IMG/VR virus record: IMGVR_UViG_3300026290_000001
From: a virus
Direction: 5' to 3' (one strand)
DNA length: 64,000 nucleotides
Part shown: positions 19,839 to 47,394 of the stretch, piece by piece
Layout: each line of letters starts with the position of its first letter
How positions within the stretch are numbered: position 1 is the stretch's first letter
Notes under the pieces: model-generated
Databases searched by the model: none
Seen by the model: the letters and a program-made list of their open reading frames with translations, nothing else
Told to the model about the DNA's origin: nothing
Program-made: the position numbers and the translations under genes

Positions 19839-20039
19839 ATATTTAATAAAGAAGATATAATGAGAATTGATTATGTTGAAAAATTATCAATTTTAGAAAT
19901 AGAAAAAGTTGCTTTATATAATAAGAATAAAATAACCGAAGAAGAAGTTTTAGAAGTTATTAAGTTACATGGGATAGGTTATAATCCAAATGTTATTTTA
20001 ATTGACAAGGAACAATTTGAAAATGTTTTTGGAAGTTGA
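19839..20039 (+). CDS. hypothetical protein, probable ATA start
   Basis: Track TTG at 19830 abuts the SD (no spacer); in-frame ATA lies about 9 nt after AAGGAGGG. Confidence 0.35.
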   Translation: MFNKEDIMRIDYVEKLSILEIEKVALYNKNKITEEEVLEVIKLHGIGYNPNVILIDKEQFENVFGS

Positions 20040-20090
20040 TTTAAAATACTCATTTCATTAAAAATAAAAAACTGAAAGGAAGGAATAAAA

Positions 20091-20429
20091 ATGAATTCAA
20101 TGAGTGCTTTTATAATGGGAGAAATAAATAGAGGTAAAGAGGAAATGGTTTTTGATTGGGATAAAGCAGCTAAATTAATTAAAGATAGTGGTTTTAAAGA
20201 TGCTTCGGCAGGACTTAATGGTGATTGGGGATGTACTAGTGGTGAAATTTTCATTAATGGCAAACCTAAAATGAGTGACTATACTTATTTAGCAAGTACA
20301 TGGGCAACACCTCAAATTGAAATTGACGGTGAATATTATGATTGTTATAGAATGGAAAGTGAAACACCCAATTGGCATAGTAAAACAATGTGGCCTAATA
20401 GTGCATTAAAAATTATAAATAAAGATTAA
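20091..20429 (+). CDS. hypothetical protein
   Basis: Track ORF. Confidence 0.5.
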   Translation: MNSMSAFIMGEINRGKEEMVFDWDKAAKLIKDSGFKDASAGLNGDWGCTSGEIFINGKPKMSDYTYLASTWATPQIEIDGEYYDCYRMESETPNWHSKTMWPNSALKIINKD

Positions 20430-20657
20430 CACCAAATAATCTTTTTATAAAAAACAATTTAAGGAGGATTAATAATGTCTTGGTATAATGAACCTTGTAG
20501 TGTACATCAGTTAAATTATGCAAAAAGTTTGGCAGAGGAATTAGATATAGATTATAGGTACGAATGGATACAACAAAATTTTACTAAAGGAGAACTGTCT
20601 AATTTAATAAAAAAATTTAGAAAACAATTGGGATTAGATTAAAATCGGAGGTAGCAG

Positions 20658-21143
20658 ATGCGAAAATACATAATTACACTACTACTTATGATTTTGATAG
20701 TAGTAATAGGGATTAATCAGGCGAATTCAAATTATCAAAAGGACGTATTAAACACAGAAAATAAATATGTGGAAACAATAGACAAGCAAGAAGAAATTAC
20801 ATATAATGAAGTTAAAAATAAAACCAAACCTGAAACAAATTTTAATATTGAAGAAAATGATAATTATATAATCATGATAGCAACAGCCTATACAAAGTCT
20901 ATAGAAGAAGGAACGCATAAAGGAATTACTAGAAGTGGCACTCAGGTTTCTAGGGGTACTGTTGCGATTGATCCTAGAGTTATACCATTGGGTACTAAAA
21001 TCTATGTTGAAGGTTATGGTCATGCGGAATGTTTAGATACTGGTGGGGATATTAAGCATAATAGAATTGATTTGTATATGGATAGCAAAGAAGAGTGTTT
21101 TGAATTTGGTAGGAGAGAAGTTAAAGTTTGGATTATTGATTAA
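20658..21143 (+). CDS. secreted/membrane-anchored 3D-domain protein (MltA-like cell-wall-binding fold)
   Basis: N-terminal hydrophobic signal-like segment; TAYT ... GTVAIDPRVIPLGTKIYVEGYGHAECLDTGGDIKHNRIDLYMDS matches the 3D (Asp-Asp-Asp) domain pattern. Confidence 0.6.
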   Translation: MRKYIITLLLMILIVVIGINQANSNYQKDVLNTENKYVETIDKQEEITYNEVKNKTKPETNFNIEENDNYIIMIATAYTKSIEEGTHKGITRSGTQVSRGTVAIDPRVIPLGTKIYVEGYGHAECLDTGGDIKHNRIDLYMDSKEECFEFGRREVKVWIID

Positions 21144-21164
21144 TATCAAATGAGGTGATTAAAA

Positions 21165-21557
21165 ATAGCAAAGAAAAAAACTACATATTATTTTGCAAGT
21201 AAAGAAGATTTTAATGATAAAATTTTATATCCTAGAATCCCTTTAAGCAGAATGGAAACTGAAGATGATAAAATTGAAAGAATTTGTGTTTCTAAAAGTA
21301 TCAATGGATGTTTAAGTGCTACACAATGTTGGGATAAAGAAGACATAGTATATATTTATAAATGCGAAAGCAATAAAGTAATACAACCAACATTAAAACA
21401 AGTGCCTGATCAATGTTTTACTGGAGAAGAATGGATTTTAGAACCAGTAAGAATGCAATTATTTATGAAGGTAAAAATTGAAACAAGTGATGATTGTAAA
21501 TTATTATCAAGGAATATGAGAAATGTAGTGTATAAGTTTGATATGTTAAAAATATAA
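21165..21557 (+). CDS. hypothetical protein, probable ATA start
   Basis: Track ATG at 21252 has no SD; frame is open back to an ATA 7 nt after GAGGTG. Confidence 0.4.
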   Translation: MAKKKTTYYFASKEDFNDKILYPRIPLSRMETEDDKIERICVSKSINGCLSATQCWDKEDIVYIYKCESNKVIQPTLKQVPDQCFTGEEWILEPVRMQLFMKVKIETSDDCKLLSRNMRNVVYKFDMLKI

Positions 21558-27437: not shown

Positions 27438-27556
27438 ATCATTATAAAACTTACTTTTTATCATGATTTTAGGCTTTAGAAATGCCTAGAAAATGGGATT
27501 TGTTTTCTGGGATTTTTATTAAATATTAAATAAAAATAAAAAAGGAGGTAATTAAT

Positions 27557-27772
27557 ATTTACGAATGTAAACAATGTGGTAATAAAAAATATTTTAATGA
27601 AATAAATTACATAAAGACATTTGTAGTTTTAGATGAAGAAACAGGTGAACCACAATATACACAAGATAAATTTATAGAGTGCATAGAAGTGTTTTGTGGA
27701 GTTTGTAAAGCAAGTAGTGAAGATAAAAATATATTATCTCAAGGGGAAATATTAAATTTAAAGGAGTATTAA
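27557..27772 (+). CDS. small zinc-ribbon protein without canonical start, not in track
   Basis: Open frame with CKQCG ... CGVCK; only ATT codons lie after the AAGGAGGT SD. Confidence 0.3.
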   Translation: MYECKQCGNKKYFNEINYIKTFVVLDEETGEPQYTQDKFIECIEVFCGVCKASSEDKNILSQGEILNLKEY

Positions 27773-27776: not shown

Positions 27777-28349
27777 TTGAGTAGTACAAATAGAAGTGAT
27801 GCACGCAATTATCACATTTCAGATTATTATGTGACTCCAGTAAATAAAATTATTGATTTTATAGATGCTTTTGTAGAAATAGAAGAAGATTTTGAAGGTA
27901 AAATGCTTGATCCTTGTGCAGGAGGAGATTCTAATCATCCAATGAGTTATCCAGAGGCATTTAAGTTATGTGGGTATTTAAATATGGATACTATGGATAT
28001 AAGAGAAGATTCTTTGGCAGATATTAAAACAAATTATCTTACATATGACTGTAAAAATAAATATAATATAATAGTTACCAATCCACCTTTTGGTTTAGCA
28101 AGAGAAATAATAGAAAAAGCATTAGATGATGTTAAGGATAATGGTTTTGTAGTTATGTTATTAAGATTAAATTTTTTTGGTGGTAAGCTTAGAGAAGATT
28201 TATGGGAAAAACAAATGCCTAAATATGCTTTTGTACATAATAGAAGAATGAGTTTTACAGATGATGGAAAAACAGATTCAATTGAATATATGCATTGTGT
28301 ATGGCAGAAGGGATATTACCCTGAATTTACTATGTTAAAAGTGATATAA
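27777..28349 (+). CDS. small putative N6-adenine methyltransferase
   Basis: YYVTP, LDPCAGGDS (motif I-like) and IVTNPPFG (motif IV); TTG start. Confidence 0.5.
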   Translation: MSSTNRSDARNYHISDYYVTPVNKIIDFIDAFVEIEEDFEGKMLDPCAGGDSNHPMSYPEAFKLCGYLNMDTMDIREDSLADIKTNYLTYDCKNKYNIIVTNPPFGLAREIIEKALDDVKDNGFVVMLLRLNFFGGKLREDLWEKQMPKYAFVHNRRMSFTDDGKTDSIEYMHCVWQKGYYPEFTMLKVI

Positions 28350-28680
28350 TTTAAATATGAATATTATAATAAAGGAGCATAATATATGAATGAAATAAAT
28401 AAAATAATTAATTATTTAATTACTATTGGATACGTTATTAAAAATGGAAGTGCATATTTACCTAGCGATAAAGAATTTGAAATTCCTTATGATGTTAGAA
28501 TGACACATTTTTTACACACGAATAAAATTTGTAATTATGAAGTACATGAAATGTAAATAAAAAACATAACCAAAATTCCATTTTATCATGATTTTCAGGA
28601 TGAAGAATCCCAATATACAGGCATCTATTTTTTGATTAATTGACAAAAATATAAAATAAATATAGGAGGAATAATACATA

Positions 28681-28725
28681 TTGTTAGAATTAAATAATTT
28701 TTACATAGGTGAAAATGCGAAATAG
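28681..28725 (+). pseudogene. 15-codon remnant of a methyltransferase 5' end
   Basis: TTG LLELNNFYIGE then stop; matches the first ~30 nt of the genes at 35506 and 40520; lies at the junction with G+C-richer DNA. Confidence 0.45.
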
Positions 28726-28733
28726 ACAGACAC

Positions 28734-29534
28734 ATGGAGAGGAGGAATGACCTGGTGGCGTTACCTTTGTTGATTGCCAAAAAAGAACAGAAGTTAAAAC
28801 AAAACTTATCAATTAAACTTTCAAATGAGAGTTGTTTTGATTTTCTCAAGAGATTGGACAGTAATTCAATATCGCTCATTCTGATTGACCCTCCTTACGG
28901 AGTTTCGAGAGATACAAATTTCGCTTCTGGTGAGGAAACGGGTAAAGATACTGATAGATTTAGAGTGTCTATGGATTTCGGTGATTGGGATTATGATTTT
29001 AATGATTTAGCAGGTGTAATTAAAGAATGTTACAGAGTTCTTAAAAAAGGTGGAACGATGATTTGTTTCTATGACCTCTGGAAAATCACAACTCTTAAAC
29101 AGTATTTTGATGATGCTAAATTTAAGCAACTTAGATACATAGAATGGATTAAGACAAATCCTGTTCCACTTAATAGTAAAACTAATTATCTCACAAATTC
29201 AAGAGAGATTGCCCTTGTTGGTGTAAAAGGTGGGAAACCAACTTTCCATTCAGAATATGATAATGGTATTTATAGTTATCCAATTTGTCACGATAAAGGT
29301 AGATTCCATCCTACACAGAAGCCTTTAGCTCTTATCGAAGATTTAATTGTTAAACATTCTGATGAGGGAGACCTTATTTGTGATTGTTTCTCAGGTTCAG
29401 GCACTACTGCTGTTGCATCTTATAATACCAATCGTAATTTTGTAGGATGTGAATTATCTAAAGAATATTACGACAAATCACTTCTTCGTTTTGAAGAACG
29501 AGGTTTCGATGGAAGGAGTGGTACTGATGAGTAG
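28734..29534 (+). CDS. DNA methyltransferase, beta-class (N6A or N4C)
   Basis: LILIDPPYG (motif IV) N-terminal and FHPTQKP ... DCFSGSGTT (motif I) C-terminal; G+C visibly higher than flanks. Confidence 0.7.
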   Translation: MERRNDLVALPLLIAKKEQKLKQNLSIKLSNESCFDFLKRLDSNSISLILIDPPYGVSRDTNFASGEETGKDTDRFRVSMDFGDWDYDFNDLAGVIKECYRVLKKGGTMICFYDLWKITTLKQYFDDAKFKQLRYIEWIKTNPVPLNSKTNYLTNSREIALVGVKGGKPTFHSEYDNGIYSYPICHDKGRFHPTQKPLALIEDLIVKHSDEGDLICDCFSGSGTTAVASYNTNRNFVGCELSKEYYDKSLLRFEERGFDGRSGTDE

Positions 29535-29726
29535 TGTTGATAAAACTATTCAGGATATGATTAAACGCAGTCCAAAGAGACTGCGACGGGGAGGGGTGAT
29601 CTTATGTTAAAAAAGTGTAACAGGGGGTTGTTTAGATGAATACAGAAAATGCAATGGAGACTGCGGCAATTGTGATTATTCATCAGAGCCCACAAAAGGC
29701 TAATTATCGCAGTTCCATAAAAAGAG

Positions 29727-29755
29727 TTGACAAGCATCTTGACACAGTGTAGTAT
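29727..29755 (+). promoter_or_regulatory. sigma-A-type promoter (TTGACA-17-TAGTAT)
   Basis: Direct reading inside the G+C-richer insert. Confidence 0.45.
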
Positions 29756-29834
29756 AAATACATACCCGTATGTCTATATCCGTACAACCAAGACGGGGGC
29801 TTATTTGGTGGGAATAAAATATTGAGGTGACATA

Positions 29835-30650
29835 ATGGATAGATTTCTAAACCAAATAATTTGCGGCGACAACGTAGAAGTAATGCGACAGATGCCAGAC
29901 AACTGCATAGACCTAACGGTAACTTCACCACCATACGATAATTTGAGAACTTATAACGGATATTCATGGGAATTTGAAGCGGTCGCTAACGAATTGTACC
30001 GCATAACAAAACCGGGTGGCGTGGTTGTGTGGGTAGTCGCCGACGCGACAGTTAAAGGCAGTGAGACAGGTACATCATTTAGACAGGCTCTTTACTTTAT
30101 GGACTGCGGATTTAATTTGCATGACACTATGATTTATGCAAAAAACAGTTATATGCCATTAACGCACAACAGATATGAGCAACAATTTGAATATATGTTT
30201 GTTTTTTCAAAGGGCAAGCCCAAGACGTTTAATCCAATAAAGATTAAGTCACAGACGGCAGGAACAAAGCGAAACCGAGGTGGAAGCAAGGCAAAAGAGA
30301 TGTCATATGCCGAAAGATTAAGAAATGAAAAGACAACTGTAAACGAATACAAGCAAGCACCAAATATTTTTTGGTATGACGTTGGGAAAAACGACAAAAG
30401 CATACACAATGCACCGTTTCCAGAACAGCTCGCAAACGACCACATTATTTCATGGAGTAATGAAGGAGATATTATCTTAGACCCAATGTGTGGTTCTGGC
30501 ACTACTTGTAAAATGGCTTATTTAAACAAAAGAAATTTTATTGGTATTGATATAAGCGAAGAATACATAAATGATATTTGTATACCAAGATTAAATTCTT
30601 ATGGATGGCAACAAAAAGAAAATATAAATATAGGAGGTAAAATAAAATAG
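29835..30650 (+). CDS. DNA methyltransferase, beta-class, SPPY type (probably N4-cytosine); chimeric
   Basis: TSPPYD and DPMCGSGTT; G+C-rich 5' two-thirds, AT-rich 3' end near-identical to the 3' ends of 35506-36345 and 40520-41323. Confidence 0.7.
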   Translation: MDRFLNQIICGDNVEVMRQMPDNCIDLTVTSPPYDNLRTYNGYSWEFEAVANELYRITKPGGVVVWVVADATVKGSETGTSFRQALYFMDCGFNLHDTMIYAKNSYMPLTHNRYEQQFEYMFVFSKGKPKTFNPIKIKSQTAGTKRNRGGSKAKEMSYAERLRNEKTTVNEYKQAPNIFWYDVGKNDKSIHNAPFPEQLANDHIISWSNEGDIILDPMCGSGTTCKMAYLNKRNFIGIDISEEYINDICIPRLNSYGWQQKENINIGGKIK

Positions 30651-31471
30651 CAAAAATTGAATTAGACAAGTATTATACTCCACCTGATTTAGCACAATAC
30701 ATAGTTAATAAAACAAAAGAAATTATAGGTGAAGATAATATTACTGAATATATAGAACCATCAGCAGGAGCAGGGGTGTTTTTAGATTATTTAGATAGAG
30801 AAAATGTTCCTTATTTGGCTTATGATATTGAACCAGAGGACAATAGGATTATTAAACAAGATTTTTTAGAGTTAGAATTAGAGTATAAAAAGGGTAGGTG
30901 TGTGATTGGGAATCCACCATATGGTAAATATATGAAACTTGCTGAACAATTTTATAAAAAGTCTATAGGAATAGGAGATTATATATCATTTATTTTACCA
31001 ATTAGCCAATTTAATAATAATATTAAATTATTTGATTTTGATTTAATATTTAGTGAAAATTTAGGTATTAAAGATTATTCAAATAAAAAAATTCATTGTT
31101 GTTTTAATATTTATAAAAGACCTAGTGGTAATCTTAATAAAAAACCAAATTATAAACTTAAAGAAGTTGAAATTAAAACTTCTCATAGAAAAGCACATCC
31201 TCCAAAAACTAATTTTATAACTAGAGATATTTTTGATTATGATATTAGAATATGTGCATGGGGTTCCTCAATAGGTAAAGTTTGTGAGTATGAAGGGCAA
31301 TATTCAACAGAGATGTGTATTAAAATCAAAAATGAAAAGTATAAAAATATAATTATCGATTTAATAAAAAATGTAAAATGGATTGATGTTTATCCTATGT
31401 TTGGTGCTCCACATATAGATTTATGGCATATTTATAAATACATAAAAGAACAAATACCTGAAATAAATTAA
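30647..31471 (+). CDS. N6-adenine DNA methyltransferase, gamma-class, probable ATA start
   Basis: YYTPPDLAQYIV, EPSAGAGVF (motif I) and GNPPYGK (motif IV); conserved region begins at ATA overlapping upstream TAG (ATAG), 9 nt after AGGAGG; track starts at internal GTG 30776. Confidence 0.6.
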   Translation: MAKIELDKYYTPPDLAQYIVNKTKEIIGEDNITEYIEPSAGAGVFLDYLDRENVPYLAYDIEPEDNRIIKQDFLELELEYKKGRCVIGNPPYGKYMKLAEQFYKKSIGIGDYISFILPISQFNNNIKLFDFDLIFSENLGIKDYSNKKIHCCFNIYKRPSGNLNKKPNYKLKEVEIKTSHRKAHPPKTNFITRDIFDYDIRICAWGSSIGKVCEYEGQYSTEMCIKIKNEKYKNIIIDLIKNVKWIDVYPMFGAPHIDLWHIYKYIKEQIPEIN

Positions 31472-31548
31472 AATACAAATCCCATTCTATAGGGATTTAA
31501 ATCGTGATAAAACAATCGTTTCATGTTGATTTAGAAAGGAGAAAATAT

Positions 31549-32130: not shown

Positions 32131-32173
32131 AATCACAGATTGGTAATGAAATTTAGAAAGGAGTAGAAATACA

Positions 32174-36345: not shown

Positions 36346-36419
36346 ATTGGGCTTTATAATCTATAAAATCATTACCAAATTTGAGTTTGGTTCAAAGTTA
36401 TAGAAAGGAGAAATTATAA

Positions 36420-37256
36420 ATTATCAATACATATTATAAAAATAAATATGCAAGGATATATCAATGTGACAATTTAGAATTATTAAAACAATTACCAAAT
36501 GAATACATAGATTTAATTTATTGTGATATTTTATACAACACTGGTAAGAAATTTAAGGATTATGATGATCAATTAGGCACAACACAAGAAGCAATTAAAT
36601 GGTATAAACCAAGATTAATAGAAATGAAAAGAGTATTAAAGGAAACAGGATCAATTTATTTACATATGGATTTTAGATTAATACATTATTTAAAAGTAAA
36701 AATGGATGAAATATTTCAATTAAATAATTTTAGAAATGAGATTATATGGGATAAAGGATTTAGGGGTACGGAGCAAAAAGAGTTTTATCAACATTCGCAT
36801 GATTCAATATTATTTTATACAAAAACTAATAACTACATATGGAATAAAGTTTTTTGTGAATATGCTGATAAAAATATGAGTAGGTATAATAAAACTGATG
36901 AAGATGGAAATAAATATGCTTTAATTAAAAGAAAAAGAACAGACGGAAGTGTTTATTATGGCAAAACATATCCACAATCAGAAGGAAAGAAAGCAGACGA
37001 TGTATTTAGAGATATAAAAACTTTTTCATCAACAGCTAAAGAAAGAATTGGTTATGATACTCAAAAACCAAAGGCATTATTAGAACGTATTATTAAAGCA
37101 TCTTCTAATGAAGGAGATATAGTAGCAGACTTCTTTATGGGATCAGGCACTACTGGCGAAGTGGCATTAGAATTAGGTCGTAAATTTATTGGTTGTGATA
37201 TTGGGGAAAGGGCATGTGAGATTACTAAAAATAGATTAGATAAAATTATAATATAA
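36420..37256 (+). CDS. methyltransferase-like protein with degenerate motif IV (DILY) and no canonical start; possible pseudogene
   Basis: [27 protein letters not shown] plus C-terminal YDTQKP ... DFFMGSGTT; only ATT/ATC codons follow AAAGGAG before track ATG 36624. Confidence 0.45.
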
Positions 37257-37308
37257 AAACATGACAAAAACTATGTTTTATTTAGATTTTAAAAGAAAGG
37301 AGAAACAT

Positions 37309-37614
37309 ATGAAATTTATTAAAGATATTTCTAATATTATAATATTGCAAAATGATCATTGTAAATTTGAAATCAGAAGTGTACAAGGATTTAATGAAGA
37401 TGAAAATAAAATAATCTTAAAATGTGCCGAAGATATATCAGAGTTTAAAAAAGGTTATGTTTGTGATATGGAATGTCATTTTCCATTAGTTGAAAATGAT
37501 GGAGTTGAAGTTGGTGAAAGAATTGATACGATTCGAGACTTGGTATTGGTTTATATCAATAAAGATATTCAAATGGAATATGCCCCTAGTTTTGAATATG
37601 TATTTTATAAATAA
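37309..37614 (+). CDS. hypothetical protein
   Basis: Track ORF 37261 trimmed to ATG after AAAGGAGAAA SD. Confidence 0.4.
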   Translation: MKFIKDISNIIILQNDHCKFEIRSVQGFNEDENKIILKCAEDISEFKKGYVCDMECHFPLVENDGVEVGERIDTIRDLVLVYINKDIQMEYAPSFEYVFYK

Positions 37615-37659
37615 TAAAACAAAATTTCGATTTTATAACGATTTTAAAAGGAGGATATT

Positions 37660-37890
37660 ATGTTTAAAAAAATTAAAGTTAGAGAATTTTTAGAAGAAGT
37701 TTGCGGAGCAAAAGTTGATTGGATTTCTGGTAATGTAATTAAAGTAAATGAACATTATATTTATTTAGATAAAAAGAAATTTATTTTAAATTATGATTGG
37801 CATTTTTATGGAACAAAAAGAGATATATTAAAAACACTAAAAGAATATGGGTTTGTGATTAAAAAGAAATTACAGTTAAATTATTATTAG
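37660..37890 (+). CDS. hypothetical protein
   Basis: Track ORF with AAGGAGGA SD. Confidence 0.45.
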   Translation: MFKKIKVREFLEEVCGAKVDWISGNVIKVNEHYIYLDKKKFILNYDWHFYGTKRDILKTLKEYGFVIKKKLQLNYY

Positions 37891-38165
37891 AAACGAAAGG
37901 AGAAATATGCATACTGAACTAACAGAGGATCAACTTAAACTAATAAAAAAGTATGGGGAAATTAATCCACCACATCATACTATTGAAGAAATTGAAGAAG
38001 CATTGAAAAAATCATCTGAAATTAAAATAAAATTACAAGAAAAATAAATATCGTGATAAAATCTCTATTTGGTGCAGAAATGGATGGCTATATATTGGGA
38101 TTTGTGGGGCTATAAATTTTGAAAATAAAAACAAAAAATAAAGATAGGAGGTAAATATATAAAAT

Positions 38166-39158
38166 TTGCTTGAATTGAATAAAATATATAATGAAGATTG
38201 TATAATCGGCATGAAAAAATTATTAAAAGATGGTTACAAAAATACTTTTGATTTTATAGAAATTGATCCACCTTATAATATAGGCAAAGATAAATGGGAT
38301 AAATTTAAAAACCATCAAACATATTTAAATTTTATTAATGAAGTTATAAGTTTATCTAATGAATTAATGAGCGATAATGGAACCTTATTTTTATGGCATA
38401 ATAATATCGAGGTGTTATCAGATTTTATTAAATTAATTAATACTACAGATTTAAAATTAATGCAATTATGTATATGGAATAAATATTATAAATATAATGA
38501 TGACGGTAATTTGAATAATCAATACGGATTTTTAAATGGATTTATTCAAAGTGATTTAAATAGGAATTATCAAAAAATGTGCGAATATATTTTATATTAC
38601 ACTAAACAAAACGAAGAATTAACTGAATATAATGAAAAAGACCCATTTAAATCACTAAAGGAATATTTTTTTAATGCCCAAAAATCTTCTGGTTTATCAA
38701 GAAATAAAATTAATCAAATATTGGGGCATAGACAATCTGAGCATACTTTTTATACTAAAACTCAATGGACTTTTCCAACAGAAGAAACATATTTAGAATT
38801 ACAAAATATAATGAATCTACCTATCCCTTATAATGATTTAAAAAATACATATGAAACAATGAGATATACATATAATTCAGAGAAAAACAATTATCGAAGT
38901 TGTATTTGGAATTACCCGATAAGTAAAGAATCAAAACACAAGACAGAGAAACCGTTACAATTGTATTATGATTTATATGAAATACATACAAAAAATAATA
39001 GTAAATGTTTATTCCCGTTTGTGGGTAGTGGTAATAATATTTTAAGTTTATTTAAAATAAATAATTTTGATGGAGGGAAACGAGAGTTTGTAGGTTTTGA
39101 AACTGACAAAACATGGTTTACTTATATAAATGAAAAAATAGATTTAAGAATCCCGTAA
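38166..39158 (+). CDS. DNA methyltransferase, beta-class (DPPY)
   Basis: IEIDPPYN and C-terminal FPFVGSGNN; TTG start; 3' end overlaps a GAATCCC/GGGATTC hairpin. Confidence 0.65.
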   Translation: MLELNKIYNEDCIIGMKKLLKDGYKNTFDFIEIDPPYNIGKDKWDKFKNHQTYLNFINEVISLSNELMSDNGTLFLWHNNIEVLSDFIKLINTTDLKLMQLCIWNKYYKYNDDGNLNNQYGFLNGFIQSDLNRNYQKMCEYILYYTKQNEELTEYNEKDPFKSLKEYFFNAQKSSGLSRNKINQILGHRQSEHTFYTKTQWTFPTEETYLELQNIMNLPIPYNDLKNTYETMRYTYNSEKNNYRSCIWNYPISKESKHKTEKPLQLYYDLYEIHTKNNSKCLFPFVGSGNNILSLFKINNFDGGKREFVGFETDKTWFTYINEKIDLRIP

Positions 39159-39232
39159 TATTGGGATTCTTAAACCCAAAAATCAACACCAAACTTCGGT
39201 TTGGTTCAAAGTTATAGGAAGGAGAAAATAAT

Positions 39233-39427
39233 ATGTTTGATTGTAGATTCGCTAAAAGTATTCTATTGGATAAAAATGAAGATGATACTTATCATATGAC
39301 AATAAAAGGAGATATTTATAATCTTGATCCTGAAGCGGAAATTGATTTTTCTAGAGTGAAAATTATTAATTTTGATATTGAGGCATTAGCAACAACTGGG
39401 ACAATATGTAAAATAAAAATAATATAA
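39233..39427 (+). CDS. hypothetical protein
   Basis: Track ORF with AAGGAGAAA SD. Confidence 0.4.
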   Translation: MFDCRFAKSILLDKNEDDTYHMTIKGDIYNLDPEAEIDFSRVKIINFDIEALATTGTICKIKII

Positions 39428-39521
39428 AATTTTTGTTTGGTTAAGAAATTTATAATTATTATAGGGATTGATTTTACCATAATTTTAATATATAATAAAA
39501 ATAAAAACGGAGGTTTTATAT

Positions 39522-39692
39522 ATGGCGATTAAATTAGAATGTGATAAAATCATTCCAAAGTGTAGTGATTGTAAATATAATAAGGATTATTCTTCTTGGC
39601 AACATAAAATTCCTTGTGGAAAACAATTCTGTGTATATGGTTGTAATGTATGTAAAAATCCATGTGATGCAAAGGAGAATATGTCTTGGTAA
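39522..39692 (+). CDS. small Cys-rich protein (56 aa), not in track
   Basis: Twelve Cys in 56 aa; ATG after ACGGAGGT SD. Confidence 0.35.
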   Translation: MAIKLECDKIIPKCSDCKYNKDYSSWQHKIPCGKQFCVYGCNVCKNPCDAKENMSW

Positions 39693-39720
39693 AAATTAAT
39701 ATTAATAAAGGAGTTATAGT

Positions 39721-40461
39721 TTGTATAAATCGCCTCTTAGATATCCAGGAGGTAAAAGCAGGGCGATAAAAATAATTATCGAGTATTTTCCGAAAAGTAT
39801 AAAAGTTATGAGTTCTCATTTTGTAGGAGGAGGATCAATTGAACTTTATTTATCTGAAAATAATAAAATAATTGCGTATGATAATTTCGATCTGCTTATT
39901 AACTTTTGGAATCAATTAAAATATAAAAATAAAAATTTACATAATACAATATTAAAATATTACCCGTTAACAAAAGAACAATTTTTAGATATACAAAAAA
40001 ATATTTATAATTCAGATGATGAAGTTGAAATGGCCGCTAAATTTTATGTTTTAAATAGATGTAGTTTTTCAGGTAGTACATTAAGCGGTGGAATGTCACT
40101 AAATCATCCAAGATTTAATATTAATTTAATACATAAACTTCAGGAAGTAAATTTAAAAAATATTGAGTTTATTTGTATGGATTTCAAAGAATCAATATTA
40201 TTACATCAAAATAATTTTAAGTATTTAGACCCACCCTATTATATTGAAAATAATTTATATGGAGTAAAAGGAGGGTTACATAAAAATTTCGATCATATTG
40301 GTTTGAATGGTATTTTAAAACAATCATCTAATTGGGTATTAAGTTACAATGATTGTGAATACATAAGAAAACTTTATGAAGGATGCAAAATAATACAAGT
40401 TGATTGGAAATACGGAATGAGTAAAGATAAAAAATCTAATGAAATTCTTATAATAAATTAG
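39721..40461 (+). CDS. Dam-like N6-adenine DNA methyltransferase (alpha-class, D12 family)
   Basis: PLRYPGGK near N-terminus and YLDPPYY later, the D12/Dam arrangement; TTG start. Confidence 0.75.
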   Translation: MYKSPLRYPGGKSRAIKIIIEYFPKSIKVMSSHFVGGGSIELYLSENNKIIAYDNFDLLINFWNQLKYKNKNLHNTILKYYPLTKEQFLDIQKNIYNSDDEVEMAAKFYVLNRCSFSGSTLSGGMSLNHPRFNINLIHKLQEVNLKNIEFICMDFKESILLHQNNFKYLDPPYYIENNLYGVKGGLHKNFDHIGLNGILKQSSNWVLSYNDCEYIRKLYEGCKIIQVDWKYGMSKDKKSNEILIIN

Positions 40462-40519
40462 TAATATAAAAACAATATAAATATTTGGTTTGGTCATGAA
40501 ATATGAAAGGAGATTATAT

Positions 40520-41323
40520 TTGATAGAATTAAATAATTTTTACATAGGCGAGTCTGTTAATTTTATGCGTTACAATATTCCAGACAACTACATTGATTTA
40601 ACTATTACTTCACCACCTTATGATGATTTAAGAAAATATAATGGATTTATATTTGATTATCAAAGTATGTTTAAGGAATTATATAGAGTTACTAAAGACG
40701 GTGGAATTGTAGTTTGGGTAGTAGGAGATAAAACTGAAAATGGTAGTGAAACATTAACAAGTTTTAAACATGCTTTATATGCTAAAGAAATCGGTTTTAA
40801 TGTTCACGATACACAAATTTATTATAAGAATAATCCTATACCAACAACAGGCAATAGATATCATCAACACTTTGAATATATGTTCGTATTTAGCAAGAAT
40901 AAACCAAGGGTATTTAATCCAATCAAGGAAGATTGTAAATATAGTGGTTTGGCTAATATGAAAAATAGAGGCAAGGATGGTTCATTAAATTATACTAAAA
41001 TTGAAAGAACTAAAGATAAAAAGGTAGGTAATGTTTTCTTTTATTCTATTGGAGGGGGTATTACTACTAAAGATAAAATTGCTTATAGTCATCCTGCGTT
41101 GTTTCCAGATAAATTAGCCGAAGATCAAATAATAACTTGGAGCAATAAAGAAGATATTATTTTTGACCCAATGTGCGGTAGTGGTACTACTTGTAAAATG
41201 GCATGGTTAAATAAAAGAAATTTTATTGGAATTGATATAAGTGAAGAATATATAAATGATATTTGTATACCTAGACTAAATATATATGGTTGGCAACAAA
41301 AGCAAAATATAAAAATATCATAA
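40520..41323 (+). CDS. DNA methyltransferase, beta-class, SPPY type (paralog group)
   Basis: TSPPYDD and DPMCGSGTT; track ORF 40490 trimmed to TTG after AAAGGAGA SD. Confidence 0.7.
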   Translation: MIELNNFYIGESVNFMRYNIPDNYIDLTITSPPYDDLRKYNGFIFDYQSMFKELYRVTKDGGIVVWVVGDKTENGSETLTSFKHALYAKEIGFNVHDTQIYYKNNPIPTTGNRYHQHFEYMFVFSKNKPRVFNPIKEDCKYSGLANMKNRGKDGSLNYTKIERTKDKKVGNVFFYSIGGGITTKDKIAYSHPALFPDKLAEDQIITWSNKEDIIFDPMCGSGTTCKMAWLNKRNFIGIDISEEYINDICIPRLNIYGWQQKQNIKIS

Positions 41324-41428
41324 AATAAAAATCCCAATTTCTAGGGATTTACAAAACTCAAAAACATGATCAAAACTTCGTTTTGTTACATCAATAAAAC
41401 AATAAAATAAATTAAGGAGGGAAATAAA

Positions 41429-41884
41429 ATAGCGGATTTTGATAACAATAGATTTGCTTCAAAAAATCAAGAGTACGCAACACCTTGGGAATTATTTAAT
41501 AAGATAAATGAAGAATTTAATTTTACCTTAGATGTGTGTGCAGATGAAAATAATCATAAAGTTGATACATATTTTACGGAAGAACAAAATGCTCTTATCC
41601 AAAATTGGAAAGGAGTATGTTGGATGAATCCACCTTATAAGGATATGAAAAAATGGGTTATAAAAGCATACGAAGAATCAGTTAAAAATGATAGTATTGT
41701 GGTTTGTTTAATTCCAGCAAGAACTAATACCAAATGGTGGCATGAGTATTGCATGAAAGGTGAAATAAGATTTATTAAAGGTAGACCAAAATTTGAAGGA
41801 TGTATTCATGGTTTACCACAACCATTAGCAATTGTTGTTTTTGGAAAAGAATATAAAAATACATATGGTTCATTAGCAATTTAG
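41429..41884 (+). CDS. phage-type Dam N6-adenine methyltransferase (PF05869-like), probable ATA start
   Basis: YATPWELF ... FTLDVCADENNHK ... WKGVCWMNPPYKD; conserved region begins at ATA 7 nt after AAGGAGGG; track starts at internal GTG 41534. Confidence 0.6.
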   Translation: MADFDNNRFASKNQEYATPWELFNKINEEFNFTLDVCADENNHKVDTYFTEEQNALIQNWKGVCWMNPPYKDMKKWVIKAYEESVKNDSIVVCLIPARTNTKWWHEYCMKGEIRFIKGRPKFEGCIHGLPQPLAIVVFGKEYKNTYGSLAI

Positions 41885-42014
41885 TAAAAATATCAAGCAA
41901 ACAATGATATATAGGCATTTTCAACTTATCACAAATGCCTATATATTGGGCTTTTACAAAAATCATTACCAAAATATCATTTTATATTAATTAGAAAGGA
42001 GAAACAAAATATAA

Positions 42015-42584
42015 TTGAGTAAAAAATATAACATTATATATGCTGACCCACCTTGGAAACCTACTGAGAGTGGTACAGGAGTTAGAGGTACGGCAGATTT
42101 AAAAAAACGATATCAAGGTGTAATGAGTATAGAAGAAATATGTGCTTTACCAGTAAAAGATATATGTGAAGATACATGCATACTGTTTTTATGGGTTACA
42201 TTTCCAAGATTACAAGAAGGAATGAAAACTATTGAAGCGTGGGGATTTCAATATTATGGGTTGGGATTTGATTGGATTAAAACTAATCTTAAAAGTGGAA
42301 CTCCATTTTGGGGAATGGGTTATTATACTAGACAAAATTCAGAAATATGCTTAATAGGAGTAAAAAAGGATAAAAATAAAAGAATTAAACCACAAGTTAA
42401 AAATATTTTATCTGTAGTTCATTCACCAAGAAGAGAACATAGTCAAAAACCTGATGAAATAAGAGATTACATAGTTAAAATTTGTGGTGATTTACCTAGA
42501 ATAGAATTATTTGCTAGACAAAAAGTTGAAGGTTGGGACGCATGGGGCAATGAAATTGAAAATGATATTATATTAAATACATAA
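42015..42584 (+). CDS. MT-A70-family N6-adenine methyltransferase
   Basis: IIYADPPW (DPPW motif) with downstream FLWV and QKP; TTG start. Confidence 0.7.
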   Translation: MSKKYNIIYADPPWKPTESGTGVRGTADLKKRYQGVMSIEEICALPVKDICEDTCILFLWVTFPRLQEGMKTIEAWGFQYYGLGFDWIKTNLKSGTPFWGMGYYTRQNSEICLIGVKKDKNKRIKPQVKNILSVVHSPRREHSQKPDEIRDYIVKICGDLPRIELFARQKVEGWDAWGNEIENDIILNT

Positions 42585-42667
42585 AATAAAAATTATCATA
42601 AAAGTCTGAATTGGTTTAGAGTTAATAAAAATGAAAAATAAAAATAGGGAGGTATCTAATACATAAA

Positions 42668-43438
42668 TTGATTGAATTGAATACTATTTATAATGAAGAT
42701 TGTATTAACTTTATGAAGAAACTACCTAATGAATCTATTGATTTAATAATTGCCGATCCACCTTATTTTGAAATATGCGGAGAGTTTGATTTTATATGGA
42801 AATCATTAGATGACTATTTAAATTGGTCTAAAGAATGGATTTTACAATGTTATAATATTTTAAAACCATCAGGCAGTATTTATATATGGGGTAAAATTGG
42901 ATTTGGTAAGGGGTATTCTTTATTTAAAATTGCAGATTGGATAGAGAATGAAAAACTGTTTATTATAAAAAATTGGATTACTCAACGTAATACAAGAGGG
43001 AGAGGAACAAAGAAAGGGTATATAGAGGCAAGAGAAGAACTTCTGTTTTGCGTAAAGTCTAATCAATGTACTTGGAATATTGCTTATACCGAAGAAAAAT
43101 CTAATAGAAAAGATTTAGGATTTGATGGCAAACCTAGAAAAAATGAGTTTAAAAGATGCTCTGATGTATGGATTGATATAGCTGAAGCAAGTCAATCAAG
43201 TAATGAAAGATTTAAAACATTTAATGGTAAAACTTTTCCAACAGTTAAAGCACAAAAATTATGTAATAGAATTATTTTGGCAAGTTCTAATGAAAATGAT
43301 TTAGTTTATATTCCCTTTGCTGGTTCTGGAAGTGAAATTGAATCTTGTATAAAAAATAAAAGAAATTGGATTGCGACAGAAATTAATAATCAATACATAA
43401 ATGAAATCATTGAACCTAGAATTAAACGTATAATATAA
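42668..43438 (+). CDS. DNA methyltransferase, beta-class (DPPY)
   Basis: IIADPPYFE and C-terminal IPFAGSGSE; TTG start with conserved 5' end. Confidence 0.7.
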   Translation: MIELNTIYNEDCINFMKKLPNESIDLIIADPPYFEICGEFDFIWKSLDDYLNWSKEWILQCYNILKPSGSIYIWGKIGFGKGYSLFKIADWIENEKLFIIKNWITQRNTRGRGTKKGYIEAREELLFCVKSNQCTWNIAYTEEKSNRKDLGFDGKPRKNEFKRCSDVWIDIAEASQSSNERFKTFNGKTFPTVKAQKLCNRIILASSNENDLVYIPFAGSGSEIESCIKNKRNWIATEINNQYINEIIEPRIKRII

Positions 43439-43665
43439 AAAATAAAAATCATGATAAAATAAGTGTTTTATCATAATATTGCAGAAATCAGTATTTTGGT
43501 AGGTTATCAACAAATACACACAACAAAGCCCTAAATGGTGGGAATGAAAAGGTATTTTAAGTGGATTAACTCTACCAAAGTAAAAAATATTTGAACCAAA
43601 TGCGTCTTTTATTCAAAGTTTATTAAAAACATAAAATAAATATAAAGAAAAGAGGATTATATATA

Positions 43666-44370
43666 TTGAAACATATTTTAAGTTTTAGTGGCGGCAAAGA
43701 TTCAACCGCAATGTTACTCATAATGTTAGAGAGAGAATATCCAATAGATGAAATTATATTTTGCGATACTGGTAAAGAATTTCCTGCTTTATATAGACAT
43801 ATTGATAAAGTTGAAGAATACATAAACCAACCTATAACTAGGCTTAAAGGAGAAAAAACTTTTGATTATTGGATGTTCGAACATGAAAAAACCAAAGGTA
43901 AACATTTAGGTAAAAAGGGTTATGGTTGGGCAGACACCAGAGCAAGATGGTGTACAGCATATTTTAAGCGTGAAATTATGAATAAATACATAAAAGAAAA
44001 ATATAATAATGAATATAAAGAGTATGTAGGTATTGCTTATGATGAGTTTAAAAGATATGAGAAAACACAAAATGGTCATAAAAAATATCCTTTAATTGAA
44101 TGGAAAATAACTGAAGGTATGGCTCTAAAATATTGCTATGATAAAGGATTTGATTGGGAAGGAGTATACACACATTTTGAACGGGTATCTTGCTGGTGCT
44201 GCCCTTTAAAAAATCAGAGAGAATTATATATGCTTTATTCTTTCTATCCTGAATTATGGGCAGAACTCAAAGATATGGATAGTAGAGCATGGAACCAGTT
44301 TAAAAGAGATTACAGTGTTCAGGATTTAGAAGATAAATTTAGGGGATGGCAAGACATAATAAAAATATAA
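43666..44370 (+). CDS. PAPS-reductase-family PP-loop ATPase-like protein
   Basis: ILSFSGGKDSTAML PP-loop near N-terminus and C-terminal CWCCP cysteine cluster. Confidence 0.6.
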   Translation: MKHILSFSGGKDSTAMLLIMLEREYPIDEIIFCDTGKEFPALYRHIDKVEEYINQPITRLKGEKTFDYWMFEHEKTKGKHLGKKGYGWADTRARWCTAYFKREIMNKYIKEKYNNEYKEYVGIAYDEFKRYEKTQNGHKKYPLIEWKITEGMALKYCYDKGFDWEGVYTHFERVSCWCCPLKNQRELYMLYSFYPELWAELKDMDSRAWNQFKRDYSVQDLEDKFRGWQDIIKI

Positions 44371-44434
44371 ATATTTACTTTCTTTATAGTATGGTGTATA
44401 ATAAATATATCATATCTATATAGGAGGTTAAATT

Positions 44435-44644
44435 ATGAAAACATATAAAACTGAATCAGGAGAAGAATGGTTATATTTTGATGAATGGTTAGTAGAAAAC
44501 AGTTATTATAAATGGAAAAAACAATATGATATTTTAGCAAGTACGGGGACAGATGAAGAAGAAATAGATAGGATTAAAGACGATTTATTAAAACAATTCT
44601 ATGATTTTTGTGAAGAATATGGGTATGTTGGTCAGGAAGTATAA
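44435..44644 (+). CDS. hypothetical protein
   Basis: Track ORF with TAGGAGGT SD. Confidence 0.45.
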   Translation: MKTYKTESGEEWLYFDEWLVENSYYKWKKQYDILASTGTDEEEIDRIKDDLLKQFYDFCEEYGYVGQEV

Positions 44645-44764
44645 TTTATAATTTTTGTGTTTTACGAACCCCTAAATAATGGGGTTTGTGAAACCAAAAA
44701 TCATGATAAAACTCATCTTTTGTGTTGATATTAAAATTTAAATATAAGGAGGTAATATTATTAA

Positions 44765-45517
44765 TTGTTTGAATTAAATAAAATATATTGTGTTGATTGT
44801 TTAGAAGGGATTAAAAATATAGAAAGTGGCAGTATTGATATGGTATTTTTTGATCCTCCTTTCAATTTAAACAAAGATTATGGAATTAAAATTAATGATA
44901 ATTTAATAAAAGAAAAATATTTAAACTGGCAGTATGAAATATTAAAAGAATCTATTAGAGTGCTATGTGATAATGGGGCAATAATTTATCATACTATCCC
45001 AAAATGGGCATTTAAAATAGCTAATTATCTTGATGAACAAGGAATGGTTTTTCAAAATTGGATTTGTTGGAATGAATCAGGATCAACACCTACCCCTTCA
45101 AGATTATATCCTAAACATTATCCTATTCTTTGGTTTTCTAAGAATAAACTCAAAACTTTTAATAAACAATATATTCCCATAGAAAGATGCAGAAAGTGCA
45201 ATACTACTATAAAAGATTATGGTGGCAAATTTAAAGATTTAAAAGAAATAGATGGTGAAAAAGTAACTGTTTTAAGTGATGTATGGGACGATATACATAG
45301 AATAAGACATAATAAAAATAAAAATAGAAAATCAAATGAACTTCCCGAAATTTTAATGGAAAGAATAATTAACTTATATTCTAAAGAAAATGATATAATT
45401 TTAGACCCATTTTCAGGTAGTGGGACAACATGTAAAATAGCAAAGAAACTAAATAGACAATATATTGGATTTGAAATTAATCCTGAATACATAAAAATCT
45501 CAAAAGAACGTATTTAA
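44765..45517 (+). CDS. DNA methyltransferase, beta-class (DPPF)
   Basis: VFFDPPFN and DPFSGSGTT; TTG start. Confidence 0.7.
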   Translation: MFELNKIYCVDCLEGIKNIESGSIDMVFFDPPFNLNKDYGIKINDNLIKEKYLNWQYEILKESIRVLCDNGAIIYHTIPKWAFKIANYLDEQGMVFQNWICWNESGSTPTPSRLYPKHYPILWFSKNKLKTFNKQYIPIERCRKCNTTIKDYGGKFKDLKEIDGEKVTVLSDVWDDIHRIRHNKNKNRKSNELPEILMERIINLYSKENDIILDPFSGSGTTCKIAKKLNRQYIGFEINPEYIKISKERI

Positions 45518-45544
45518 AACAACAAAATAATATTATTGACGTTG

Positions 45545-45573
45545 TTGACTTTGTTTGTGAAAATTGATATAAT
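45545..45573 (+). promoter_or_regulatory. sigma-A-type promoter (TTGACT-17-TGaTATAAT)
   Basis: Direct reading, extended -10. Confidence 0.5.
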
Positions 45574-45598
45574 TAATAAAAATGTAGGAGGTATATTT

Positions 45599-45859
45599 AT
45601 GGCAGTACGCAGACAAAGGGCAACAACTAGTGCAGAAATAATGGATAAAGATATTAAAATAGTAATTAAAAAATCAAAAGTTCGCTATAGAAGTGTAGAA
45701 TCAAAATCTCATGGTTTTGTTAATGAATTTTGGATTGAAAAAATTGATGATTTATTTTTTTCAGGAGGTAAAATAAGTGAAGAAAGAATTTATCAACATT
45801 GGAAATTCAACTTTGATAAAAATAAGTGGGAGTGTATAGAAGACAAATCTAAAAATTAA
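45599..45859 (+). CDS. hypothetical protein
   Basis: Track ORF 45536 trimmed to ATG after TAGGAGGT SD. Confidence 0.4.
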   Translation: MAVRRQRATTSAEIMDKDIKIVIKKSKVRYRSVESKSHGFVNEFWIEKIDDLFFSGGKISEERIYQHWKFNFDKNKWECIEDKSKN

Positions 45860-45972
45860 TTTAATAAGAAAAATACAAATCCCATTATATCGGACTTCAT
45901 TTTTATAAAAATCATGATAAAACTTGTCTTTTGTCATGATATTAAAACAAAAATAAATATGGAGGTTAAAAT

Positions 45973-47394
45973 ATAATTAAATTAAATAAGTTTGCATTAG
46001 TACAATTAACTCCAAAAGATATGCGAAGCCAAGATAGTATAAATTTAGGATTAGAAATTATATCTGAAATAGTTAAAAAACAAGGTTGGCAATTAGATAC
46101 ATATAAATTCGGAGATAAAATTCAAGATGTTAATTCATATGATATTATAGGGTTTAGTTTATTCTATTTTACACAAATGTTAAATTTAGTTCCATTCCTA
46201 AAGAGTAATAATATTAAACCATTAAGTAGTAAAAGAAACAATCAACCACTATTATTAGCTGGCGGTCAAGGTATTCAAAATCCTAAACCAATTAGTAAAT
46301 TTATTGATGTATTTTGTATGGGTGAGGGTGAGGGGGTTTTGGAATATATCTTAGAAAATTATAAAAATAAAAATATTTTATCAAACCATAAGTCTTTGTA
46401 TATACCAAATATAAATGATAATTTTATATTCAACTCAATAAAAGATGTTGATTCTAAACCTATAATTTATGGTAAAAATAGCATGATAGAATTAACGAGG
46501 GGATGTAAAAATAGATGTAAGTTTTGTCAGTATGGATGGACAAATGGTAAATATCGAGAAAAAAACATCGAACTAGTAAAACAACAAATATTAGAGGTTA
46601 AAGATAAAGGCATTAAAAATATTAACTTGTTAAGTTGTAATTTGGGTGGTTATTCTAAGATAAATGAAGTTCTTGATTTTTGTATAGAAGAAAATATTAG
46701 ATTAATGAATACCGATATGAGAATTGACGAATATAGTGAAGAAATAGCTATAAAATTAGACCTACTAAAAGTGAGAACTCTAAAAGTTGGAGTAGAAAGC
46801 TTTTCTGATCAAACACGAATTGGTATTAATAAGAATATTTCAAAAATACAATTAGATACTTTTATTGACAGAGCTTTGAAGCATAATATATCAAATTTAC
46901 ATTTTTATTTAATATACGGACTTCCAAACGAAGAAAACTATAATGAATGGTTTAATTATATGGAATACATAAAAAATAGAATAAAATCTGTTGATAGAAA
47001 TATAAGAATTGAATTTAGTATTACTAATTTTGAACCAGCAATATATACACCCTTTGAAAAAAGTCCTTTAATTAATTTCCAAGACAAGCATAAATTTATG
47101 AGAGAATATTTAATAAAACAAGAAGAATTGGGTTATATAAAACAACCCGCACAAACAAAAGATTATAAAAATAGTCATGGAAGATTAGGCAGAAAAGAAC
47201 GAAGTTATAATATTGGAATGTGGTTACTACATGGGGACGAAACTGTAGGGGATGTGTTATATGAATTAAACATTAAAGGAATAGGTAGGAGTATAAATGA
47301 AAAGATTTATAATCAAATTTATAAAATATGCCAATCAAAAACTGATGTTTATCAAATAAGAAACATTCAAGATTTAAATGAAAATATATGGTGA
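45973..47394 (+). CDS. radical SAM protein with N-terminal B12-binding-like domain, probable ATA start
   Basis: TRGCKNRCKFCQYGW (CxxxCxxC); N-terminal FALVQLTP ... LGLEIISEIVKKQGW fits the cobalamin-binding-domain pattern; track ATG 46021 has no SD, ATA lies 7 nt after GGAGGTT. Confidence 0.55.
   Translation: MIKLNKFALVQLTPKDMRSQDSINLGLEIISEIVKKQGWQLDTYKFGDKIQDVNSYDIIGFSLFYFTQMLNLVPFLKSNNIKPLSSKRNNQPLLLAGGQGIQNPKPISKFIDVFCMGEGEGVLEYILENYKNKNILSNHKSLYIPNINDNFIFNSIKDVDSKPIIYGKNSMIELTRGCKNRCKFCQYGWTNGKYREKNIELVKQQILEVKDKGIKNINLLSCNLGGYSKINEVLDFCIEENIRLMNTDMRIDEYSEEIAIKLDLLKVRTLKVGVESFSDQTRIGINKNISKIQLDTFIDRALKHNISNLHFYLIYGLPNEENYNEWFNYMEYIKNRIKSVDRNIRIEFSITNFEPAIYTPFEKSPLINFQDKHKFMREYLIKQEELGYIKQPAQTKDYKNSHGRLGRKERSYNIGMWLLHGDETVGDVLYELNIKGIGRSINEKIYNQIYKICQSKTDVYQIRNIQDLNENIW

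Follow-up and report, generated by a model that had tools for sequence, protein, structure and literature searches.

In Escherichia coli, the AUU start codons of infC and pcnB reportedly limit translation in a manner that depends on initiation factor 3 (IF3). AUA is almost inactive as a start in that organism, and autoregulation by IF3 is specific to infC. Orphan methyltransferases of large temperate phages, such as those of the SPbeta-like and Clostridioides difficile phiCD211/phiCDIF1296T type, are presumed to protect the phage DNA from restriction. In gusA reporters of Clostridium sporogenes and C. butyricum, AUU, AUA, AUC and CUG gave 5-20% or 40-100% of the AUG level according to the 5' untranslated region, and the same start codons gave 0.04-3% of AUG in E. 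coli (PMC9680021). In Staphylococcus aureus, Ribo-Ret (retapamulin) revealed AUA starts in infC, ccpN and citZ and an AUU start in cvfC1, with extended Shine-Dalgarno (SD) sequences; AUA and AUU starts gave ~10-30% of AUG in reporters, and the AUA start of ccpN is conserved in Bacillus subtilis (PMC13009471). Our literature search returned nothing on ATA or ATT starts in phage methyltransferases or on the start-codon usage of SPbeta-like or phiCD211 phages. Here we describe eight genes, four of them for DNA methyltransferases, whose reading frames appear to begin at ATA or ATT in a stretch of viral DNA of 64,000 nucleotides (nt) (IMG/VR record IMGVR_UViG_3300026290_000001; the whole stretch is called the window below).

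Eight ATA and ATT codons behind strong Shine-Dalgarno sequences

The original prediction, made from the sequence of the window, placed non-canonical starts at ATA codons 19839, 21165, 30647, 32174, 41429 and 45973 and at ATT codons 27557 and 36420. All eight codons are found at these positions, on the + strand, and each follows a strong SD (6-9 matched nt) at an aligned spacing of 7-10, spacing being counted from the base that aligns with the final G of GGAGG. Among the ATG genes of the window (n = 82), spacing falls between 6 and 10 in 80%, with peaks at 7 and 9. Each site has an in-frame stop 0-9 codons to its 5' side, so that the only usable near-cognate codons are the listed ATA and ATT, plus the adjoining ATT at 45976 and ATC at 36423. 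Canonical starts appear first 7-68 codons downstream, and none yields the conserved full-length protein, although at 19839 the ATG 7 codons downstream is formally possible as a start. The claim that these downstream ATG and GTG codons lack an SD was correct in general but has two exceptions. At GTG 30776, an AGGAG at spacing 4 is formed by the codons for motif I of the methyltransferase; at the internal ATG 41624, AAAGGAG arises as a by-product of conserved WKGV codons.

An ATA at good spacing is not significant by itself, because AUH codons (AUA, AUU, AUC) are common by chance: they account for 11% of codons, and an in-frame AUH stands beside the ATG in 21 of the 82 ATG genes. The case therefore rests on the comparative evidence, and its significance is that of a combination, namely no canonical start, a conserved N terminus and homologues that start on that very codon.

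At 30647, a DNA methyltransferase of 274 amino acids (aa) with motif I EPSAGAG and motif IV NPPY (30632..31471) starts at ATA behind AGGAGGT (30632-30638, aligned spacing 9). The homologous position in 14 relatives on other viral contigs is occupied by ATA in L003 (66% aa identity) and L004 (61%), ATT in L005 (64%), ATG in L007 and L010-L016, and GTG in L008 and L009, while L006 has ATG two codons downstream. As predicted, motif I lies upstream of GTG 30776, and a start there would remove it. The match to PF07669 (Eco57I-like gamma-class N6-adenine methyltransferase) is sub-threshold (18.2 bits, cut-off 25.3). The motifs IEPSAGAGVF and GNPPYG are visible in the sequence, and tblastn retrieves phage "DNA N6-adenine methyltransferase" genes at 29-33% identity. 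A frameshift or fusion with the upstream gene, whose TAG overlaps the ATA (ATAG), was considered at this site and rejected, since the homologues are stand-alone genes that start on that codon. The other sites are preceded by intergenic gaps of ~20-120 nt.

The phage Dam-type methyltransferase at ATA 41429 (151 aa, 41414..41884) has AAGGAGG at 41414-41420 (aligned spacing 8) and matches PF05869 from residue 12 (3.3e-32, 112 bits). Where the window reads ATA GCG GAT TTT, contigs L019 (79%) and L022 (55%) read ATG GCx GAT TTT, giving MADFD... versus IADFD.... Of its cluster mates at 90% identity or more, the near-identical P0009 starts with M, as known at the protein level, and P0008 starts with L (TTG; LADFD...). 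The first canonical start of the window gene would remove the N-terminal third of the Dam domain.

Two further sites belong to the N6_N4 DNA methyltransferase family (PF01555). The gene of 433 aa at ATA 32174 (32155..33475; 1.9e-22, 80.8 bits) has the SD AGAAAGGAG at 32155-32163 (aligned spacing 9), and the ATA is the sole near-cognate codon between an in-frame TGA and the conserved N terminus. Contig L054 (66%) starts at a TTG aligned with the second codon of the window gene, TTA, and L056 (70%) reads ATA-TTG where the window reads ATA-TTA. The predicted ATA start stands here with one correction, that relatives begin at TTG one codon later and not on the ATA codon itself; by this alignment, the TTG has been lost in the window, leaving the preceding ATA as the only option. 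The gene of 278 aa at ATT 36420 (36402..37256; 9.1e-55, 186.4 bits) has the same SD, AGAAAGGAG, at 36402-36410 (aligned spacing 8), with ATT-ATC immediately after an in-frame TAA. A start at its first ATG, 36624, would cost the protein 68 aa, motif IV among them. In L067 (90% aa identity) the N terminus reads CTA-ATA, of which only the ATA is usable behind AAGGAGGT. Motif IV itself deviates from the usual DPPY in both proteins, being DILY in 36420 (DILY or DILF in relatives L012, L014 and L067-L070) and DFPY in 32174.

The remaining four sites lie in other genes. A radical S-adenosylmethionine (SAM) enzyme of 473 aa (45961..47394) starts at ATA 45973, followed by ATT 45976, with GGAGGT at 45961-45966 (aligned spacing 7). 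Its matches to PF04055 (57 bits) and PF19864 (Radical_SAM_N2, 69.2 bits) place it among B12-binding radical SAM enzymes, and L060 (73% aa) has ATT alone behind its SD, aligned with the second codon of the window gene. At ATA 21165, an open reading frame (ORF) of 130 aa (21152..21557; SD GAGGTGAT at 21152-21159, aligned spacing 9) reads ATA GCA AAG AAA where L145 (78% aa) reads ATG GCA AAG AAA; L146 also has ATG, and the ATA is kept in L147 (~84-94% nt identity), whose upstream context differs. At ATA 19839, an ORF of 66 aa (19822..20039; SD AAGGAGG at 19822-19828, aligned spacing 10) begins IFNKEDIM. Its cluster mates P0039, P0040 and P0042 (at least 90% identity) are exactly 66 aa long and begin MFNKEDIM, the M of P0039 being known at the protein level, and P0036 and P0037 retain Ile at the start position. 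At ATT 27557, a protein of 71 aa with two CxxC pairs (zinc-ribbon-like; 27541..27772; SD AAAGGAGGT at 27541-27549, aligned spacing 8) has homologues P0061-P0063 (69-84% identity, 71-72 aa) that begin MY(V/I)CK(Q/K)CGNKKY. In DNA, the start reads ATG TAT GTA TGT in L159 and ATG TAC GTA TGT in L160 versus ATT TAC GAA TGT in the window, and the sole canonical start, GTG 27689, would cost the first CxxC.

At several start sites (window 43663-43668, L056:3001-3006, L155:19661-19666) ATA stands directly before TTG (ATATTG), an arrangement that has become ATA-TTA at 32174, and tandem weak starts may be a recurring layout.

Taken across sites, alignment with related phages places ATG, GTG or TTG on the same codon at 30647, 41429, 21165, 19839 and 27557, and on the adjacent codon at 32174. 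A non-canonical start is kept in relatives at 30647 (L003, L004, L005), 36420 (L067), 45973 (L060) and 21165 (L147). The original prediction had counted ATG in related genomes as a sign against it. ATG was indeed found at 41429, 21165, 19839 and 27557, but because it occupies the same codon it marks the start position of the family and gives no sign that the ATA is an error.

The residues upstream of the first canonical starts were predicted to belong to conserved domains, and they are under purifying selection and shared by the N termini of homologues. By Nei-Gojobori estimates, omega is 0.09-0.33 for whole genes. For 36420 against L067, the 67 N-terminal codons hold 19 synonymous and 9 non-synonymous differences (omega 0.06), and in the 42 aligned codons (2-43) at the N terminus of 30647, the differences from L003 number 7 and 2 (omega 0.06). 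The segments before the first canonical start of 32174 and 45973 give omega of 0.11-0.18, estimates that are noisy for such short segments, one 20-codon comparison giving omega >1.

An ATG-to-ATA sequencing or assembly error, which the original prediction had raised, can be dismissed as having virtually no chance of being right: nothing speaks for it beyond the one-base difference from ATG, errors would need to hit the start codons of one gene class only, diverged relatives carry ATA or ATT, and assemblies from five samples and three pipelines (JGI 3300009647, 3300009671 and 3300026194; ENA ERZ27268616, MEGAHIT; Logan SRR5007459) are 100% identical to the window over the compared regions, ATA codons included. 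Also raised, and also rejected, were start-codon-inactivated genes, that is, pseudogenes whose translation has been lost. ATG to ATA is a single transition, and close relatives of 41429, 21165 and 19839 do have ATG. The ORFs are intact, however, purifying selection includes the part before the first canonical start, relatives at 61-90% aa identity keep ATA or ATT, and strong SDs are maintained at the correct spacing. Translation could instead begin at the first downstream ATG or GTG, giving the N-terminally shorter proteins of the public calls. Such proteins are the output of Prodigal-type callers, and the Pfam domain of 32174 and 45973 would survive the truncation. Yet those codons are without an SD, the conserved upstream segments would be left untranslated although homologues begin at the upstream position, and the products would lose motif I (30647), motif IV (36420), the N-terminal part of Dam (41429) or a CxxC (27557). 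Selection on the N-terminal segments and the loss of motifs thus make both pseudogenes and downstream starts very unlikely.

Spacing, homologous start codons, purifying selection and identical assemblies support real AUA and AUU initiation. The alignments establish where the codons lie, that they are conserved and under selection, and that they are homologous to the start codons of relatives. On this comparative basis, we put the probability that the eight codons are real, SD-directed translation starts at roughly 0.82. The strong SD at normal spacing would put AUA or AUU in the ribosomal P site, where formylmethionyl-tRNA would read it with one mismatch, at the third position, in ordinary 30S initiation as in Firmicutes. 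Methionine would then be inserted and a full-length, functional protein made, probably below the AUG rate. We found nothing that makes AUA special in this phage: the window and 20 kb of flanks (84 kb) contain no tRNA genes at all, whether initiator, Ile2-like or other, that could explain AUA decoding, and no Rfam element matched the leaders at gathering thresholds. A scan of 81 strong SD sites revealed no hidden further ATA or ATT genes, the 17 unassigned sites being small ATG ORFs or intragenic. The automatic SD-anchored start caller gives false positives at internal SD-like sites and beside true ATGs, and all counted sites were inspected by hand.

The expectation that standard annotation would cut short or miss all eight genes was borne out. 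Seven are shortened in public calls (231, 412, 116/86, 457, 101, 59 and 210/196 aa), and the 27557 ORF is uncalled in three public annotations. The public call of 19839 is 59 aa from ATG 19860, that of 21165 is 101 aa from ATG 21252 and that of 45973 is 457 aa from ATG 46021; the 231-aa call of 30647 is without a Pfam match. Because standard callers accept only ATG, GTG and TTG, systematic gaps are likely in the methyltransferase inventories of AT-rich Firmicutes phages and in the motif assignments that go with them.

Start codons of the methyltransferase island

The eight sites lie in and around an island of ~16 DNA methyltransferase genes (27777..45517, + strand, plus a 16th gene at 50184/50193 outside this span). 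Seven genes of the island start at TTG (27777, 35506, 38166, 39721, 40520, 42015, 44765), one at GTG (28755) and two at ATG (29835, 34608), one of these without an SD. The remaining methyltransferase starts are three ATA, one ATT and two that are ambiguous between ATA and TTG. Five families are represented (N6_N4_Mtase PF01555, D12 PF02086, MT-A70 PF05063, Dam PF05869 and the sub-threshold Eco57I-like PF07669), and the bias against ATG runs through all of them. ATG starts 2 of the 16 methyltransferases versus 80 of the 91 other genes (Fisher p = 3e-9), and AUH starts 4-6 of the 16 versus 4 of the 91 (p = 0.017 to 0.0007), p-values that are inflated by paralogy, as 35506/40520 and the group with the N terminus LIELN may share an inherited start codon. 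The TTG-start methyltransferases tend to have long spacers, of 11-14 nt. Other weak-start genes encode the radical SAM enzyme (ATA), a PAPS-reductase-like protein (TTG), a DUF5662 protein (TTG), the zinc-ribbon protein (ATT) and two proteins of unknown function. Almost all genes in the 20 kb of flanks start at ATG.

Similar starts are found on related contigs. On the AT-rich contig L003, two methyltransferases begin at ATA (9998, 12381), and two paralogous genes at L003:6564-7121 and 13283-13834 begin ATA GCA AAR GG (IAKGQF.../IAKGYF...) and stay without a canonical start over 64-79 codons. An ATA-start methyltransferase is present in L055 (2464), a probable ATC-start D12 methyltransferase in L068 (3355) and an ATA-start ORF in L005. 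The L003 paralogues at 6564 and 13283 have sub-threshold HNH_3 and AP2 matches and may be homing-endonuclease-like. In L160:4003-4677, a methyltransferase is called from an internal ATG, with conserved KINKIYNEDC upstream in an open frame and no obvious canonical start; it is probably another mis-called weak start.

What purpose might the weak starts serve? Most likely, they keep the output of DNA-modifying enzymes low; alternatively, they persist as little of these proteins is needed. Throttling of potentially toxic enzymes, as originally proposed, would be a plausible purpose, and the idea gains support because the sites concentrate in methyltransferase genes, a pattern that the original prediction did not point out. 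On the side of selection, ATA or ATT at the 30647 site persists across synonymous divergence (dS) of ~0.6-1.2, and the starts are consistently weak, whichever family or spacer is considered.

A more far-reaching version, which we regard as improbable, is that of a start-codon "regulon", in which the methyltransferase arsenal and other nucleic-acid enzymes behind AUA, AUU and UUG would respond together to the stringency of start selection. That stringency would be set by IF3 activity and initiator-tRNA supply and could shift during induction or infection or be shifted by the phage itself. If true, this would amount to a global post-transcriptional switch for DNA modification, going beyond a fixed low dose.

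Tolerated erosion is a considerably stronger contender, although we still hold it to be the less probable account. According to this explanation, AT-biased mutation turns ATG into ATA, ATT or TTG in low-dose accessory genes in a nearly neutral manner with no regulatory purpose, while Clostridia-type ribosomes initiate well enough that the codons still serve as starts. It is favored by the G+C content of 27%, by the way in which close relatives differ in their start codon (the Dam site has ATG, TTG or ATA, and 19839 has M or I), by the partial redundancy of 16 methyltransferases, and by Clostridium reporters in which AUH codons reach up to 40-100% of AUG. SD length also bears on it. The notion that an extended SD compensates for the weak codon was not retained, as SDs of ATA and ATT genes average 7.6 nt versus 6.9 nt for ATG genes, a weak trend only (p = 0.09), and the lack of significant compensation agrees with erosion. 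Against erosion stand the retention of ATA or ATT at 30647 over lineages at the dS given above, the spread of the bias over five methyltransferase Pfam families while the replication genes of the same genome are almost all ATG, and the long spacers of the TTG-start methyltransferases, which suggest a consistent push toward weak initiation.

Some of these observations weigh against our preferred reading of the eight codons as starts that keep enzyme output low. Adaptive throttling is indistinguishable from tolerated erosion under AT mutation pressure, initiation at the eight codons rests on sequence comparison, the difference in SD length is slight, and paralogy may lie behind part of the gene-class bias. 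To these may be added that the assignment of a probable Clostridia host draws on AT content, SD type, the anaerobic NrdD/NrdG and one label of a metagenome-assembled genome (MAG).

The starts of two more N6_N4 methyltransferases, which the original prediction did not include, are ambiguous. One (42648..43438, + strand; PF01555, 116.9 bits) has the SD GGAGGT followed by ATA 42659 at spacing 6 or TTG 42668 at spacing 15, and the other (50170..50951, + strand) has AAAGGAG followed by ATA 50184 at spacing 6 or TTG 50193 at spacing 15. For these two genes, the chances are evenly divided between an ATA start and a true start at the TTG three codons downstream, over a 15-nt spacer of which the ATA would be part. 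In alignments with paralogues 35506, 40520, 38166 and 44765 (LIELN...), the TTG falls on their TTG starts, and for 38166 a TTG at spacing 14 is the sole choice. On the other hand, spacing of 14 or more is seen in just 1 of the 82 ATG genes, ATA-CAT-AAA/AAT is kept across W:42659, W:50184 and L003:11548 (ATA CAT AAA TTG ATT GAA TTG AAT being common to 42659 and L003:11548), and the corresponding start position holds Ile in place of Leu/TTG in L003:12381 and in the relative P0051.

Further features of the island were noted. Including L157:443-1267 (minus strand, near the integrase), the phage has ~16-17 methyltransferase genes, an unusually large arsenal, and the set is mosaic and not syntenic among related contigs. 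An AT-rich imperfect palindrome of ~36 nt, AAAAATCATGAYAAAAC-N5-TTTTRTCATGATATT, recurs just 3' of many genes in and around the island (27435-27470, 28560-28595, 37255-37290, 43445-43480, 44697-44732, 45908-45943, 47429-47464, 49733-49768 and 51085-51120). Matches at no more than 3 mismatches number 87 versus 50 +/- 7 expected, and the RNA folds are weak (-4.6 to -11.6 kcal/mol). Its role may be that of a terminator, of an operator or of a cassette junction. One variant of the palindrome, AAAATCATTACCAAA...TTTGGTTCAAAGTTATAGAAAGGAG, leads directly into the SD of 36420 and of 39233, and looser forms of it precede 42015, 49951 and methyltransferases in L067 and L003.

The phage and its host

The window has 27% G+C and a strong purine skew, with essentially all genes on the + strand. 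Its Pfam matches include a replication and nucleic-acid-repair module with a beta clamp, DNA polymerase III (Pol III) alpha, RecJ, a primase-like protein, an NAD-dependent ligase, RtcB, an RNA ligase and a GmrSD-like protein. The sequence is found on 13-15 public contigs, the longest of 138 kb, and flanks taken from public assemblies encode a tyrosine integrase, a YorF-family protein, a RecD2-like helicase, the anaerobic reductase NrdD/NrdG and a dUTPase. On the basis of these flank genes and of the length of the public contigs, the phage is a temperate, SPbeta-like phage of ~135-138 kb with an anaerobic host. From its sequence features, the host is probably AT-rich and Clostridia-like; the near-identical Dam protein P0009 (HAS90806.1) carries the label of a "Clostridiales bacterium" MAG. 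No close cultured relative was found: megablast of 21.5 kb against INPHARED returned short methyltransferase fragments only, and tblastn of two proteins gave matches of at most 43% identity and no close cultured phage.

Upstream of the methyltransferase island, a protein with a GmrSD_N domain (a type IV restriction-like endonuclease domain) is encoded at 7671-8759. Near-consensus sigma-70 type promoters (TTGACA-N17-TAATAT) at ~26290-26330 and ~47465-47505 precede the RNA ligase gene (26355) and the NAD-dependent DNA ligase gene (47526).

Comparison with described systems

The findings bear most directly on annotation, where their relevance is clear and practical, and are of moderate interest to specialists in translation and in phage epigenetics. 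With 8-10 natural AUA and AUU starts, and more in related contigs, the phage offers material on how Clostridia-type ribosomes handle near-cognate codons, and the contrast within one genome between methyltransferases and other genes is a clear, testable pattern for the tuning of dose by phages through the start codon.

Among described phages, the SPbeta-like and C. difficile phiCD211/phiCDIF1296T phages are likewise large and temperate, with Pol III alpha, a YorF-type replication module and orphan methyltransferases, and methyltransferase 27777 has 75% nt identity over 376 nt to phiCD211. The present phage differs from phiCD211-type phages in that one island holds ~16 methyltransferases and that no cultured phage is closely related to it. 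The weak AUU starts of E. coli infC and pcnB hold down the amount of a protein whose excess is harmful or unneeded, as proposed here for the phage enzymes, but they belong to another organism and gene class, and the IF3 autoregulation is a property of infC.

The Clostridium reporters share with the phage a strong SD and, probably, an AT-rich, Clostridia-type translation system, and in them AUH codons are functional starts. Those reporters were engineered, and their authors suggested that annotations be re-examined, whereas the phage starts are natural and evolutionarily retained. In S. aureus, AUA or AUU likewise stands at normal spacing after a long SD, the codon is conserved in relatives and attenuation is expected. 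The S. aureus starts were mapped experimentally and have an extended SD; the phage starts are known from sequence, and their SDs are not clearly longer than those of ATG genes. While S. aureus has four such sites per genome, the phage has 8-10 in ~30 kb, concentrated on DNA-modifying enzymes. The mechanism is thus known from Firmicutes, and what is new here is the unusual density of the sites, their phage setting and their bias toward one class of genes.

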